Positions 11,256-23,490 of a stretch of DNA of 64,000 nt are shown here, one piece after another; within the stretch, counting starts at the first letter, position 1; each line of letters starts with the position of its first letter. The stretch comes from a phage, in sequence record PZ386966.1; one strand, written 5' to 3'. Under the pieces are notes generated by a model that did not search any database, was not told the origin of the DNA, and worked only from the letters and a program-made list of their open reading frames with translations. The translations under genes were made by a program, and so were the position numbers.

Positions 11256-19253
<7,998 letters not shown>

Positions 19254-19255
19254 TA

Positions 19256-20422
19256 ATGGCAGTAGGTGAAATTCAAATTAGTGCCTTGCCTCAAGCAGCC
19301 TTACCAATTGACCTTAGTGATATCTTCCATCTTAAGCAGGGTATTGAGGATAAGAGATGTACTCTTGAGCAATTACTTGCTCCACACTCAAGCCTAAGAA
19401 ATAACCCCCACGGTGTTACTAAAACACAGATTGGTTTAGATAATGTTATTAATGCTCTTCAGTTAGTTGCTGCAAATAACTTATCAGACATTACTAATGT
19501 TGATGAGGCAAGAGCAAATCTACAGATTATGTCTTCAGAAGAGGTTAATAGCCTTATTCAACAGCATATTAATGATAAGAGTAATCCACACAATACAACT
19601 AAAGCACAGGTTGGTTTAAGTAATGTTCAGAACTGGACAACATCCAACCTTTATAATGAAGATGCAGATAAGTACGCTACAGCAAGAGCAGTAAATAACT
19701 TGTACAAGGCTGTTCAGGCTTCTTATCCAGTAGGTACTATCCATCTCTCTATGAATCCTGCAAACCCCTCTACATATTTAATTTGTGGAGGTACTTGGGA
19801 GTTAGTTTCAAGAGGAAGAGCACTTGTAGGTTATGATAGTGCTTCTAGGCCAGTTGGTAGTAACTTTGGCTCAAGTAGTATTAGCTTATCTAGTAACAAC
19901 CTACCATCACATAGCCATTCAATCTATCTAACTGGTGGTGGGCATACTCATGGTGCTACTATTACTATTGATGGCTTTGATTACGGCAATAAGAGCACAA
20001 ACAGTTTCGATTATGGAACAAAGACCACTAATAGCACTGGTGCTCACACCCACTCAGTGAGTGGTTCAACAAATACCACAGGTAATCACACACATACTGT
20101 AGGTGGTCGTTACGGAGGTGACTCTATTGGTGGTAAACAACGTGTTCAGGTCTCAGGGACTGCTCAGGTTTCCAGTGTAGCTGGTGACCACTCACACACT
20201 ATTAGCGGTTCAACAAATACCACAGGCAATCACCAACACACTGTTGCAATTGGTGCTCACACGCATACTGTTGCAATTGGTGCTCATACCCATAAAGGCA
20301 CAGTAACTTTGCAGTCATCTGAGCATACTCACTCAGGTACTACAGGCACTACAGGTGCTGGTCAAGCATTTAGCGTTGAACAACCATCCTTTGTGGTTTA
20401 TGTATGGCAAAGAACCGCTTAA
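19256..20422 (+). CDS. tail fibre protein with fibre repeats, collar domain and His-x-His C-terminal module
   Basis: Repeats 'NPHGVTKTQIGLDNV' and 'NPHNTTKAQVGLSNV' (phage fibre repeat type); collar-like 'YPVGTIHLSMNPANPSTYLICGGTWEL'; C-terminus full of HTH/HSH triads. Confidence 0.65.
   Translation: MAVGEIQISALPQAALPIDLSDIFHLKQGIEDKRCTLEQLLAPHSSLRNNPHGVTKTQIGLDNVINALQLVAANNLSDITNVDEARANLQIMSSEEVNSLIQQHINDKSNPHNTTKAQVGLSNVQNWTTSNLYNEDADKYATARAVNNLYKAVQASYPVGTIHLSMNPANPSTYLICGGTWELVSRGRALVGYDSASRPVGSNFGSSSISLSSNNLPSHSHSIYLTGGGHTHGATITIDGFDYGNKSTNSFDYGTKTTNSTGAHTHSVSGSTNTTGNHTHTVGGRYGGDSIGGKQRVQVSGTAQVSSVAGDHSHTISGSTNTTGNHQHTVAIGAHTHTVAIGAHTHKGTVTLQSSEHTHSGTTGTTGAGQAFSVEQPSFVVYVWQRTA
20240..20293 (+). 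repeat. 27-bp perfect-frame tandem duplication inside tail fibre gene
   Basis: 'actgttgcaattggtgctcacacgcat' followed by 'actgttgcaattggtgctcatacccat', encoding TVAIGAHTH twice. Confidence 0.8.
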
Positions 20423-20472
20423 AAATTCTTTTACAGGGGGCTGTATAGCCCTCTTTCTAGAGGACAAAAATA

Positions 20473-22809
20473 ATGGCAGATTACAAGTTGAGTGAATTAA
20501 ACTCAATCGATACAATCCGTTCAGATGACCTTCTTCATGTCAGGGTTAAAAAGAGACCTGAAATGCTGGGTGATGAAGACCGTCGAATGACCTATCAAGA
20601 TTTCTTAGCATCTTTTAAGCTTGAAAGATTTGTTCAGATTGCTGGTAGTACTATGACTGGTGACTTAGGGATTGTTAAGTTACTTTATGGTGGTAAGGCA
20701 GTATTTGACCCAACAGGTTCTTCTGAGATTACTATGGGGGATGTTTTAAAGACTTTTAAACTTAATGCAAATGGTCTTAAACTAACTATTGCAGATGCTT
20801 CAAGGTCAGCAACTGTTTATCATACTCTGAATAAGCCAAGTCCTAATGAGCTTGGTATGAGAACTAATGAAGAGAATGACGCAAGATATGCAAGACTTGC
20901 TGTCACAAACACATTCTCTGGGACTCAGCAAATTCAAGGTGATGCTAACTTACTTCGCCTTAGAAACCAAAATGCAAATAATGCACAATATATTGAAGGT
21001 GTAGACCTAGATGGTTCGGCTAGATGGTGGGTCGGTATTGGTCGCAATGGCGGTGATACAGTAAACCTGTATAACAACAAATACGACTCAGCCTTGACTG
21101 TTGCAAGTAATATTTCTGTTAATAAATCTTTAGTAATCACTGGTCAAGTCCAACCCTCTGATTTCTCTAACTTAGATGCTAGATACTTTACTCAGACAGT
21201 TGCTAATCAGAGATTTGCACAGTTAGCTGGGGATAACACTTTTACAGGTGCTAATACTTTCACTAACCTTGTTGTTAAGAAGAACGCTAATGCTCTTACT
21301 TTGCAGAATACTGATGCAAGTACACCACTTTACATTCTCGGTAAGAAGTCTGATGGAACAAATAAATGGTATGTTGGTACAGATTCTGAAGATACACGTC
21401 TAAACATTTATAACTACCTTACAGGTTCGCAGGTTTCACTAGGTACAACTATTGGTATCAATAAAACCGTGCAAATCACTGGGCAGGTTCAACCCTCAGA
21501 TTTCTCTAACATTGACTCTAGATATATTCCGGCAGCAACATTAAGTACAATTGCAAGAACTAATGCTACCAACACATTCTCTGCACGACAAGTTATTAAC
21601 TCTGATGGTGAAGCTCTTGCGCTAAGAGCAAAGACTACCTCGTCATTGTTCATTAGAGGTCTTGCTTCTGATGGAACTAATAAATGGTATGTCGGTAATG
21701 GTGGTGCTAATGACGACTTAAGTCTGTTTAACTTCAAAACAGGTAAATATATTTCCGTTAGTTCATCAATCGTCATGAATGCCACTTTAGCAATCACTGG
21801 ACAGGTTCAACCCTCAGATTGGTCTAACTTAGATGCCAGATATTTTACCCAATCAGCAGCTAATCAGAAATTTATGTATGCAGGCTCTACAGGAACAGCT
21901 AGTGAAGTAGGTGATAACAAAGGTGTCGCTTGGAATGCTAAAACTGGTCTGTATAATGTTACAAGGTCTAATGGAGGTTCAACACTACTTGTTTTCCAAA
22001 TGTATCAGGGTTCAAGTTCTACTCCTTCTGCTCAATTAAAATTCGACTACAGGAATGGGGGATTTTGGTACAGGTCATCAAGGGACGGCTTTGGTTTTGA
22101 AGAGGGCTACACACAGATTTATACAGAAAAGTATAAACCAACCCCTTCAGCTATCGGTGCATACACTAAAGCAGAAACTGACCAGAAGATTGCACAGGCA
22201 GTAAGTGACTCTACAGACCTTAATAAAATCTATCCAGTAGGTATTGTAACGTGGTTTAACAGTAACGTTAACCCTAATACAGCACTTCCTGGGTTAACTT
22301 GGACGTACCTGAACAATGGTGTAGGTAGGACAATCAGGGTTGCAGCAGCTAATGGTTCAGATGTTGCTACAACTGGAGGTTCAGATTCTGTTACGTTAGC
22401 AGTTGGAAACTTACCTTCACACACTCATAGTTTCTCTGCGACAACCTCCAGCTTTGACTACGGTACTAAAACCACTAACACTACTGGTGCTCACACCCAC
22501 TCAGTGAGTGGTTCTACTAACAACACTGGTGCTCATACACATACAGTTGGTGGTCGTTATGGTGGTGACTCTATCGGTGGTAAACAACGTGTTCAGGTAT
22601 CAGGTACTAATCAGGTATCTAGCTCTGCTGGTGACCACTCACACACTGTATCTGGTACTGCTGCCTCTAACGGAAACCATGCTCACACAGTTGGTATTGG
22701 TGCTCACAGCCATACAGTGAGTGGTAACACTGGAGGTACAGGTTCTGGTTCAGCATTTAGTGTAACTAACCAGTTCTATAAGCTGATGGCTTGGGTAAGA
22801 ACTGCTTAA
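20473..22809 (+). CDS. long tail fibre protein with triplicated internal domain and His-x-His C-terminal module
   Basis: Three ~110 aa repeats each ending 'ITGQVQPSD(F/W)SN(L/I)D(A/S)RY'; collar-like 'YPVGIVTWFNSNVNPNTALPGLTWTYL'; C-terminal ~90 aa about 80% identical to the C-terminus of 19256-20422. Confidence 0.65.
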   Translation: MADYKLSELNSIDTIRSDDLLHVRVKKRPEMLGDEDRRMTYQDFLASFKLERFVQIAGSTMTGDLGIVKLLYGGKAVFDPTGSSEITMGDVLKTFKLNANGLKLTIADASRSATVYHTLNKPSPNELGMRTNEENDARYARLAVTNTFSGTQQIQGDANLLRLRNQNANNAQYIEGVDLDGSARWWVGIGRNGGDTVNLYNNKYDSALTVASNISVNKSLVITGQVQPSDFSNLDARYFTQTVANQRFAQLAGDNTFTGANTFTNLVVKKNANALTLQNTDASTPLYILGKKSDGTNKWYVGTDSEDTRLNIYNYLTGSQVSLGTTIGINKTVQITGQVQPSDFSNIDSRYIPAATLSTIARTNATNTFSARQVINSDGEALALRAKTTSSLFIRGLASDGTNKWYVGNGGANDDLSLFNFKTGKYISVSSSIVMNATLAITGQVQPSDWSNLDARYFTQSAANQKFMYAGSTGTASEVGDNKGVAWNAKTGLYNVTRSNGGSTLLVFQMYQGSSSTPSAQLKFDYRNGGFWYRSSRDGFGFEEGYTQIYTEKYKPTPSAIGAYTKAETDQKIAQAVSDSTDLNKIYPVGIVTWFNSNVNPNTALPGLTWTYLNNGVGRTIRVAAANGSDVATTGGSDSVTLAVGNLPSHTHSFSATTSSFDYGTKTTNTTGAHTHSVSGSTNNTGAHTHTVGGRYGGDSIGGKQRVQVSGTNQVSSSAGDHSHTVSGTAASNGNHAHTVGIGAHSHTVSGNTGGTGSGSAFSVTNQFYKLMAWVRTA
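20940..21850 (+). repeat. three in-frame ~330-bp direct repeats within fibre gene
   Basis: DNA motif 'atcactgg.caggt.caaccctc.gatt..tctaac' recurs near 21136, 21475 and 21793; coordinates approximate. Confidence 0.6.
22454..22725 (+). repeat. shared His-rich fibre-tip module (copy 2; copy 1 at about 20006-20300)
   Basis: Near-identical DNA and protein ('FDYGTKTTN.TGAHTHSVSGSTN.TG.HTHTVGGRYGGDSIGGKQRVQVSGT.QVSS.AGDHSHT') in both fibre genes. Confidence 0.75.
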
Positions 22810-22888: not shown

Positions 22889-23086
22889 ATGCCTACAATC
22901 CTAGCAATTCTCCTAAAAAATCTAGGTAGTTTCTTCTGGAAACTCATTTTATCCCTTCTGAGTGAATACATGATTGAGAAAGTGTTCTTTAGGCTTGCAA
23001 GATACCTTGCGAGTAAAACAGACACACCTATTGATGATGAGTTCGTAGATAACTTAGAAAAAGCTTTTAAGGGGGAGAATAAATGA
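22889..23086 (+). CDS. small membrane protein (holin-like candidate)
   Basis: 65 aa with hydrophobic N-terminal segment; sits after the tail fibre genes. Confidence 0.3.
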   Translation: MPTILAILLKNLGSFFWKLILSLLSEYMIEKVFFRLARYLASKTDTPIDDEFVDNLEKAFKGENK

Positions 23087-23454
23087 AGTGGCTAGAGGAA
23101 GCTTTTAAAAATAATATTGGTGCAATTGTAGTTGGTATTTTTAGTGTTATTGGGATGTATACCACCATGCAAGTTTCGGATGGTAAACAAGAAGTGTCTA
23201 TCACAACAAAGTTACAACAGCTAGATAATTATTCCAAAAGCAATTATTCAGCTATTCGTGATTTACAGTCTGATATGAGGCTGCTTCAGCTAGGGATGGA
23301 GAACCAGAAAGTCCAGTTAGAGAATGTTAAGGGAGAGAACGCAAAACTTACTAAGACTCTTGATAAATTCTCTGATAGTGTGAACAATCTGGCTCAATCA
23401 GTATCAGCCCTCCAAGCTATTACTGAAAAGAACACAAAGAATACTGAAAAATAA
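23083..23454 (+). CDS. membrane-anchored coiled-coil protein
   Basis: N-terminal TM helix 'IGAIVVGIFSVIGMY' then Q/L-rich coiled coil. Confidence 0.4.
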   Translation: MKWLEEAFKNNIGAIVVGIFSVIGMYTTMQVSDGKQEVSITTKLQQLDNYSKSNYSAIRDLQSDMRLLQLGMENQKVQLENVKGENAKLTKTLDKFSDSVNNLAQSVSALQAITEKNTKNTEK

Positions 23455-23462
23455 AATTTTAA

Positions 23463-23490
23463 GGCTCCTTTTTACGGGAGCCTTTTTGTT
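23463..23490. terminator. bidirectional rho-independent terminator
   Basis: Hairpin 'ggctcc ttttta cgggagcc' plus T-run, between convergent gene blocks. Confidence 0.6.

Follow-up and report, generated by a model that had tools for sequence, protein, structure and literature searches.

Based on our comparisons, the fibre locus of the window (the whole 64,000-nt stretch of phage DNA that was analysed) is very probably the standard short and long tail-fibre pair of a Felix O1-like myophage of the genus Felixounavirus, with tips built on the plan of T4 gp37. It is a textbook-like case of a fibre architecture already in print; the newsworthy claim of the preliminary description of this DNA, that a metal-binding rung had just arisen, is wrong. 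The evolutionarily active element would be the head cassette of the tip, bordered by conserved DNA that encodes His-x-His (HxH) rungs.

Gene content and relatives of the fibre locus

A megablast search with the locus matched 235 phage records, nearly all of them Felix O1-like, at 91-95% nucleotide identity. Synteny was compared with Felix O1, and the gene order proved to be that of its ORF73-77, the Felixounavirus order in which a J-like wedge is followed by a baseplate protein of 285 aa, a protein of 100 aa and the two fibres, short before long:

16622-19253, plus strand: upstream baseplate genes for a 489-aa J-like wedge, a 285-aa wedge/baseplate protein and a 100-aa protein (ORFs, Pfam, PHROG)
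19256-20422, plus strand: short tail fibre, 388 aa, orthologue of Felix O1 gp76 and Bas63 gp26 (ORF, PHROG, Pfam, 2XGF)
20473-22809, plus strand: long tail fibre, 778 aa, orthologue of Felix O1 gp77 and Bas63 gp27 (ORF, PHROG, Pfam)

The earlier assignment of two tail-fibre genes was confirmed: both ORFs are adjacent on the plus strand, at exactly the coordinates previously given, and both match PHROG tail-fibre families strongly and over their full length (short fibre with phrog_2097, tail fiber, E 1.6e-138; long fibre with phrog_4277, aligned at 1-778 of 780, 1407 bits). Pfam matches in the long fibre are to PF20744 (three), PF12604 and PF03335 (three). The short fibre is 98% identical to a cluster of 81 sequences; its 1167-nt gene and synteny recur in Felix O1 and 7 other phages, and all the Felix O1-clade phages that were examined have a short fibre of 388 aa. 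Upstream, the 489- and 285-aa sizes equal those of Bas63 wedge 2 and wedge 1 (PMC12609058), and by its position the 100-aa protein before the short fibre would be the Bas63 long-fibre platform, gp25. Minus-strand and alternative-frame ORFs of 60-102 aa inside the fibre genes overlap these genes and were taken as spurious. A promoter and terminator scan gave no signal above shuffled expectation within either fibre gene. The two ORFs downstream of the long fibre have PHROG matches to families of unknown function only, and no chaperone was recognised there; the Sf14 paper reported no Mu-type chaperones.

Felix O1 (gp76/gp77) and Bas63 (JohannRWettstein; gp26/gp27) belong to the same genus, share the gene order and the 388-aa short fibre and are 91-95% identical to the window in nucleotides over the locus, the long fibres comparing as 778 versus 782 aa; the differences from the window are allelic only. 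The Felix O1 paper of 2010 described nucleotide repeats of 51 and 32 bp common to both fibre genes (PMC3185647), and the Bas63 paper of 2025 described T4-gp37-like collar, needle and head tips with HxH motifs as well as repeated long-fibre shaft domains (PMC12609058). The shared module and the shaft repeats discussed below are thus already known from these publications.

The fibre tips compared with T4 gp37

The following parts of the two tips were delimited:

19715-20065, plus strand: short-fibre collar, Pfam PF21939 Gp10_C (aa 154-270, E 6e-17), reaching the first ascending rungs
19910-20095, plus strand: short-fibre ascending needle strand with four HxH motifs (H219, H230, H264, H278) and two FDYG motifs (motif scan, T4 gp37 alignment)
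20099-20185, plus strand: short-fibre head cassette, aa 282-310, VGGRYGGDSIGGKQRVQVSGTAQVSSVAG (T4 tip alignment)
20186-20332, plus strand: short-fibre descending needle strand with five HxH motifs (H312, H326, H335, H344, H357; motif scan, alignment)
22411-22743, plus strand: long-fibre needle and head, aa 647-757, with six HxH motifs (2XGF E 2e-14, motif scan)
22546-22632, plus strand: long-fibre head cassette, aa 692-720 (module alignment)

The previously suggested likeness of the tips to that of the T4 long fibre is borne out by phmmer, which aligned short-fibre residues 146-359 with residues 18-227 of the 2XGF chain (E 9e-26) and long-fibre residues 647-757 with residues 104-218 (E 2e-14); T4 gp10 structures match the short fibre at aa 143-228. 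Collar, needle and head are homologous to those of T4 gp37, and a double IGxHxH rung occurs in both. In the short fibre, an HxH motif stands opposite each of the seven in T4, and two more (H219 and H357) have no T4 counterpart. In the long fibre, H650, H674 and H688 lie on the ascending and H722, H736 and H745 on the descending side; five of these six align with T4 and the sixth lies upstream; the long fibre lacks the last T4 rung and has one descending rung fewer than T4. The dense HxH content noticed in both tips stands, with nine motifs counted in the 388-aa short fibre and six in the 778-aa long fibre. The head sequences differ from that of T4. In T4, four proteins make up the fibre, with gp37 as its distal segment, dependent on the chaperones gp38 and gp57A; each fibre of the window is one protein.

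We infer that each fibre protein would form a homotrimer that binds metal. From the collar, each chain would run up the needle through G-x-H-x-H rungs, turn through a head of about 29 aa and return down through further rungs. In T4, one axial iron ion is held at each rung by two histidines from each of three chains. By homology, there could be up to nine metal sites in the short fibre (four ascending and five descending) and six in the long fibre (three and three), the predicted nine being an extrapolation. The term beta-helix used for the tip in the preliminary description is loose: the T4 needle is built of six intertwined beta strands. An AF2 model of the short fibre, run as a monomer with a 25-sequence alignment, had a pLDDT of 43.7 and a pTM of 0.22; it is uninformative for an intertwined trimer and no evidence against a needle lined with histidines. 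In T4 gp37, H929 and H931 are iron ligands, and seven irons lie along the needle (PMC6957217). Cryo-EM of Bas63 revealed a collar, an HxH needle and a head in both the short and the long fibre, with seven HxH reported in its short fibre against nine in that of the window (PMC12609058).

The tandem TVAIGAHTH units and the shaft repeats

On its descending side, the short fibre has a tandem repeat:

20240-20266 and 20267-20293, plus strand: two tandem 27-nt units, TVAIGAHTH twice, aa 329-337 and 338-346 (TRF, codon table)

TRF reported a period of 27, 2.0 copies and a 92% match. What had been called a perfect duplication of 27 bp is perfect only in the peptide: the DNA of the units agrees at 25 of 27 positions, the two differences, CAC/CAT and ACG/ACC, being synonymous. 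It had also been proposed that the duplication is fresh and adds a rung, and that the triplicated domain of the long fibre likewise reflects ongoing change in copy number. An exactly repeated TVAIGAHTH with 25/27 identity in DNA is what such a recent in-frame event could leave; distant clades of the genus do differ in having 2, 3 or 4 IG rungs, and small gp37 duplications can widen the T4 host range, as stated in the part of PMC3157838 that cites Tetart 1996. Against this, two adjacent IGxHxH rungs stand at the same residues, aa 329 and 338, in all 37 orthologous loci compared (29 from IMG/VR and 8 from GenBank), and T4 gp37 also has the double rung, as SVGIGAHTH-TVAIGSHGH. Nine HxH motifs, found in 25 of the 29 IMG/VR short-fibre loci, are the family norm, and the length of 388 aa is clade-wide. 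The same two synonymous differences as in the window occur in at least six relatives (VSe102, Sl26, Si3, BPS17W1, BPS17L1 and PMBT20), independent isolates with Russia and Germany among their recorded origins. Identity between the units is 24/27 in Felix O1, AN17P8 and UAB_Phi87 and 27/27 in Mushroom. The proposed comparison of copy number among relatives gave two units in all 37 loci, and the IMG/VR search returned four two-copy matches and none with one or three copies. Neither identical copies (25/27) nor copy-number polymorphism (37 loci), as signs of a recent tandem duplication, were found.

The long-fibre shaft has three repeats:

20857-21192, plus strand: shaft repeat 1, aa 129-240 (shuffled pairwise alignment, Pfam gp37_trimer)
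21193-21531, plus strand: shaft repeat 2, aa 241-353 (repeat finder, pairwise alignment)
21532-21849, plus strand: shaft repeat 3, aa 354-459 (repeat finder, pairwise alignment)

The description of three repeats of about 110 aa with a common ending was correct. They end in ITGQVQPSD[FW]SN[LI]D[AS]RY at aa 222, 335 and 441, and PF20744 gp37_trimer matches in three stretches, the best at aa 159-247, with 218 bits against a gathering cutoff of 21.7. The repeats were demonstrated by pairwise local alignment and shuffling, with all z values above 22 (27.5 for repeats 1 and 2, 26.1 for repeats 1 and 3); BLASTP of the long fibre against itself returned the identity match alone and no internal repeats. 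Any two of them agree at 43-50 of 92-107 aligned residues (about 43-49%). The repeat positions, at about 224, 338 and 447, are kept in all long-fibre orthologues examined and the copy number is fixed, with no indication of ongoing length evolution. The shaft would consist of three ancient gp37_trimer copies, with conserved junctions on either side of variable interiors. Five beta-helix repeat domains were reported for the Bas63 long fibre (PMC12609058), as compared with three clear repeats by sequence in the window.

With the long-fibre repeats this divergent and fixed in position as well, recent duplication and continuing copy-number change are highly improbable, a reading that the comparative data already refute. 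Still less credence is due to the idea that faulty assembly produced the tandem repeat or the shared module. Repeated DNA is prone to mis-assembly, and the long-fibre ORF is split in the records of some relatives (L002, L008); against this, dozens of phages sequenced independently of one another show the same structure, and the shared 51- and 32-bp repeats were already reported for the Felix O1 genome in the Sanger era (PMC3185647). Because the repeat is fixed in 37 loci, was found in no one- or three-copy form and shares its synonymous differences with relatives, it is old, adds no rung and does not stem from faulty assembly. The two TVAIGAHTH units would be two consecutive descending rungs, with counterparts in T4 gp37 and in every Felixounavirus short fibre. 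Within the Felix O1 clade the units are nearly homogenised, a state that would be older than the split of the Felix O1-clade isolates compared.

The shared module and its head cassette

The two fibre genes share one module near their ends:

20006-20272, plus strand: short-fibre copy of the shared module (alignment to 22453-22719)
22453-22719, plus strand: long-fibre copy of the shared module (alignment to 20006-20272)

In its core, 75 of 89 residues (84%) and 206 of 267 nucleotides (77%) are identical, close to the near-identical module of about 90 aa and 80% DNA identity noted before. The repeat finder returned 199 nt at 83%, and BLASTP of the short against the long fibre gave 56% identity over 185 aa (E 2e-52). 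The longest exact run between the two genes is 32 nt in the window, compared with 51 nt in Felix O1. The variation does not extend over the whole module but sits in the head of about 29 aa between the rungs. Among orthologues this head is hypervariable, with many alternative types, and HxH rungs 4 and 5 enclose the only part of the alignment where the consensus falls to "x". The short-fibre head aligns with the T4 gp37 tip subdomain at about residues 932-959, and residues of the T4 tip contact LPS and OmpC (PMC6957217).

By record name, the head type of the window's short fibre occurs in 78 phage records, 72 named for Salmonella and 1 for Escherichia, counts that carry no phylogeny correction; whole-locus matches include 118 Escherichia and 80 Salmonella names. 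The head cassette of about 87 nt (20099-20185 and 22546-22632) is the likely host-range determinant, and it would predict a Salmonella host for the window phage. The short and the long fibre of the window have one Salmonella-associated head type in common, and from this we infer what the matched heads may mean for function: the two fibres probably recognise one shared LPS-core receptor.

The shared DNA had been seen as a substrate for recombination, and relatives agree with this: identical tracts between short- and long-fibre genes reach 113 nt in UAB_Phi87 and 115 nt in PMBT20, with flanks saturated at third positions, and 51-64 nt in further relatives, and cassettes move between both genes. 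The 113-115-nt tracts indicate, on sequence grounds, gene conversion between the short and long fibre genes. From head distances, the UAB_Phi87 and PMBT20 tracts are two separate events, apparently opposite in direction. Recent conversion is seen only in relatives, and the window has no recent tract; its two heads differ at 19 of 116 nt, and each groups with its own orthologues.

Could ancestry and purifying selection on a constrained fold explain the likeness of the modules with no recombination between the genes? Orthologues are nearer than paralogues across the 234-264-nt module, the window's short fibre differing at 11 sites from that of UAB_Phi87 and at 54 from its own long fibre, and the 32-nt limit on identical tracts in the window fits as well. 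This explanation is nevertheless unlikely in view of the relatives: the 113- and 115-nt tracts, like those of 51-64 nt elsewhere, are sharp-edged amid codons that differ at nearly every third position, a 113-nt run at a background identity of about 77% has a chance of about 1e-13 by our calculation, and the same head types turn up in one phage's short fibre and another phage's long fibre. Concerted evolution of the module as a whole was rejected, orthologues being nearer than paralogues module-wide; conversion would be limited to the tract of the head and to certain genomes. We favour exchange of the head, which homologous recombination or gene conversion would carry among phages and from one fibre gene to the other.

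This scheme recalls the shuffling of T-even adhesins, in which, according to the part of PMC3157838 that cites Tetart 1996 and 1998, a variable specificity segment lies between conserved recombining motifs, as here. In Felixounavirus, exchange is also seen between paralogous fibre genes within a single genome, and our literature search found no earlier report of such exchange. We put the chances at about even that recurrent bidirectional head conversion keeps or re-sets both fibres of Salmonella phages on one head, with the HxH rungs acting as metal staples and recombination linkers and the head as a genus-level determinant of Salmonella versus Escherichia. The cassette edges could serve as natural swap boundaries in engineering Felix O1-type fibres. 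Consistent with movement between the genes, the L003 long-fibre head is nearest to SP116-type short-fibre heads.

A second variable cassette lies between the shaft repeats and the tip of the long fibre:

21886-22215, plus strand: mid-fibre domain, Pfam PF12604 gp37_C, aa 472-581 (E 5e-29)

Residues 464-573 match the tail fibre S of phage Mu (8ju3, E 3e-22); this region lies near the fibre end in Mu, whereas in the window it is mid-fibre, upstream of the gp37-like tip. Short and long alleles of the domain exist, and relatives carry a 51-aa insertion that follows residue 484.

Fibre genes and the identity of the phage

Two adjacent genes and the elements around them are the subject of this analysis:

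19256-20422, + strand, short tail fibre gene (ORF, 388 aa; Felix O1 gp76, Bas63 gp26)
20473-22809, + strand, long tail fibre gene (ORF, 778 aa; Felix O1 gp77, Bas63 gp27)
19403-19447 and 19583-19627, two copies of the 15-aa motif NPH..TK.Q.GL.NV, a DNA repeat in the short-fibre N-terminal half
22889-23454, two small ORFs (65 and 123 aa) matching only PHROGs of unknown function
23461-23484, bidirectional terminator-like hairpin (9-bp stem, T-runs on both sides)

By megablast, the fibre interval matched 235 phage records, almost without exception Escherichia or Salmonella phages of the Felix O1 type, with 91-95% identity in the best full-length matches; a 24-kb stretch around it shows the same match behaviour, and the gene order and sizes are those of Felix O1 ORF73-77. 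Judged by these matches and this gene order, the phage is a Felixounavirus, and the two ORFs, by the same comparisons, are its short and long tail fibre genes. The genes before them encode a Baseplate_J-like protein (489 aa), a baseplate protein (285 aa) and a product of 100 aa; after them come the two small ORFs and the hairpin, which divides this operon from convergent minus-strand thyA and dfr. No fibre chaperone was recognised adjacent to the fibre genes from the PHROG matches of the two downstream ORFs; the 123-aa product is annotated as a holin in some relatives. The NPH..TK.Q.GL.NV motif is common to many unrelated phage fibre PHROGs. Record GU169904.1 ("Staphylococcus phage SA1", 147 kb) includes Felixounavirus DNA, with coverage of 100% for the fibre locus and 94% for the 24-kb query at 91-94% identity, and is probably chimeric or contaminated.

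A T4 gp37-type tip with an old pair of rungs

The sequence of the T4 gp37 receptor-binding tip (2XGF) is matched by aa 146-359 of the short fibre (E 9e-26) and by aa 647-757 of the long fibre (E 2e-14), and all seven T4 His-x-His motifs aligned with His-x-His in the short fibre, bearing out the T4 tip homology of the preliminary description. In T4 gp37, the needle contains seven iron ions, coordinated by H929/H931 and six other motifs, and the LPS- and OmpC-binding tip subdomain is made up of the residues that directly follow H931 (PMC6957217). The fibre biology is already published for this genus: cryo-EM of Bas63 showed in both fibres a collar, an HxH needle whose chain doubles back, and a head (PMC12609058), and the 2010 Felix O1 genome paper had noted the gp37 homology as well as nucleotide repeats of 51 bp and 32 bp that genes 76 and 77 have in common (PMC3185647). 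We propose that each fibre is a homotrimer, in which metal ions bound on the axis by the rungs (G-x-H-x-H units) would staple the needle, with as many as nine ions per short fibre and six per long fibre. The head, a segment of ~29 aa between ascending and descending rungs, would contact an LPS-core receptor, and both fibres may recognise the same Salmonella receptor. An AlphaFold2 monomer run (pLDDT 43.7) was uninformative either way, as expected with an intertwined trimer.

The C-terminal module said to be shared by the two fibres is real, the proteins being 56% identical across 185 aa (BLASTP, E 2e-52). Its core, from FDYGTK to the first IGAHxH rung, has 75 of 89 aa and 206 of 267 nt (77%) identical, and an ungapped repeat finder gave 199 nt at 83% between the two genes. 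There are nine His-x-His motifs in the short and six in the long fibre, almost all within the last 170 residues.

20006-20272, + strand, module core of the short fibre
22453-22719, + strand, module core of the long fibre
20240-20266 and 20267-20293, + strand, adjacent 27-nt units of the short fibre

The 27-nt units had been described as a perfect, fresh duplication adding one rung. They match at 25/27 positions, and both mismatches (CAC/CAT and ACG/ACC) are synonymous; "perfect" was the sole factual error of a largely correct observation. T4 gp37 reads SVGIGAHTH-TVAIGSHGH at the same aligned place, and therefore the double rung is common to T4. Our survey of 64 cluster representatives of short-fibre homologues and 29 IMG/VR loci found that every short-fibre orthologue has the x-x-x-I-G-x-H-x-H unit twice in succession (aa 329 and 338); a few clades have three or four adjacent units. 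Nine HxH motifs are the usual short-fibre total (25/29 IMG/VR loci), and the gene is 1167 nt long in 8/8 GenBank relatives compared. Pattern scans of IMG/VR returned four two-unit matches and none for either three-unit or one-unit forms.

Unit-to-unit DNA identity in short-fibre genes
Clades outside the Felix O1 group: 14-22/27
Felix O1, AN17P8, UAB_Phi87: 24/27
Window, VSe102, Sl26, Si3, BPS17W1, BPS17L1, PMBT20: 25/27, same two differences
Mushroom (locus L040), aa 329-346: 27/27

Given the units in all orthologues and T4, the shared differences, the fixed gene length and the scans, the pair is old, stable in copy number and no assembly artefact, and its partial homogenisation came before the Felix O1-clade isolates under comparison split. 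No rung has been gained relative to these phages. The 27/27 of Mushroom against 24-25/27 in its relatives points to local homogenisation with copy number unchanged. One homologous protein, P0052, is a frameshifted short fibre.

Head cassettes and their exchange

20099-20185, + strand, head cassette of the short fibre
22546-22632, + strand, head cassette of the long fibre

The short-fibre alignment consensus collapses solely between the fourth and fifth HxH rungs, which is the head. Many unrelated head sequences exist among orthologues, and head types occur in either fibre gene, depending on the phage. The GGRYGGDSIGGKQRVQVSGT head is present in both fibres of the window, Felix O1, UAB_Phi87, SP116 and others, and in the short fibre only of BPS17W1, whose long-fibre head is also that of the SPJ41 short fibre (P0008). 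Some E. coli-type Felixounavirus fibres have a head almost the same as the T4 gp37 tip (YIEAWNGTG.GG.KMSSYA.SYR.GGSNTNAAGNHSHTFSF): the long fibre of loci L006 and L011 (~aa 690-725) and the short fibres P0024 and P0025. This implies that cassettes have passed between T4-like phages and those of the Felix O1 type, entering either fibre gene. By blastn, the 120-nt window head matched 78 records, 72 Salmonella-named and 1 Escherichia-named, against 118 Escherichia and 80 Salmonella records for the whole locus, so that, by record names and without phylogenetic correction, host genus appears to be tracked much more closely by the head than by the backbone.

When the module is compared within genomes, the flanks keep a fixed, old pattern of third-position differences, and the head differs in behaviour.

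Longest stretch without mismatch between the short and long fibre genes
PMBT20: 115 nt
UAB_Phi87: 113 nt
SapYZU01: 64 nt
Felix O1: 51 nt (the published repeat)
Mushroom: 34 nt
Window: 32 nt

The UAB_Phi87 long-fibre head has 3 differences from its own short fibre, and every other long fibre is 10 or more differences away, suggesting transfer from short to long; in PMBT20 the short-fibre head is separated by 4 differences from the long fibre of the same phage and by 7 from that of Mushroom, which suggests transfer in the opposite direction. The long-fibre head of locus L003 is closest to SP116-type short-fibre heads. We calculate the chance of a 113-nt identical run at ~77% background identity as ~1e-13; the 113- and 115-nt tracts in relatives thus support the earlier view of the shared DNA as a substrate for recombination. 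In the window, the two heads differ at 19/116 nt and each groups with its own orthologues; therefore, no recent conversion has occurred there. Evolution of this kind has its closest precedent in the T-even adhesin locus: as relayed in PMC3157838, exchanges there take place within conserved motifs and small gp37 duplications alter host range (Tetart 1996, 1998). We found no report of recurrent head conversion between the two fibre genes among the papers searched, and it represents a modest extension of known fibre modularity.

Repeats and length of the long fibre

The triplicated domain is confirmed: three repeats end in ITGQVQPSD[FW]SN[LI]D[AS]RY at aa 222, 335 and 441, with pairwise identity of ~43-49% and z-scores of 22-27 against shuffles, and Pfam PF20744 (gp37_trimer) has three matches in the protein. 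The junction motifs lie at ~224, 338 and 447 in orthologues, and the strict pattern finds 1-3 of the three junctions per orthologous locus and never occurs elsewhere. A 17-sequence alignment, in which junction conservation is 0.85-0.95 versus 0.52-0.67 for repeat interiors, contains no repeat-sized indels, in agreement with the Bas63 paper, which attributes long-fibre variability to sequence divergence, not variable repeat number (PMC12609058). Half of the earlier interpretation stands, on homology and recombination substrate; it is wrong in calling the duplication fresh, in adding a rung and in seeing length as still changing.

Long-fibre length ranges from 777 to 849 aa, the sources being head length, which also varies among long fibres, and a second polymorphic cassette:

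21886-22215, + strand, PF12604/Mu-S-like mid-fibre domain (long fibre aa 472-581)

This domain has short and long alleles, the long ones with ~51 aa inserted after residue 484; the ~840-aa variants exist because of this and smaller insertions, which are found in Sl26, Mushroom, BPS17L1 and loci L005, L017, L020 and L026. Two long-fibre ORFs are truncated, at 453 aa in L002 (Si3) and 541 aa in L008, which suggests frameshifts or sequencing errors in a repeat-rich gene.
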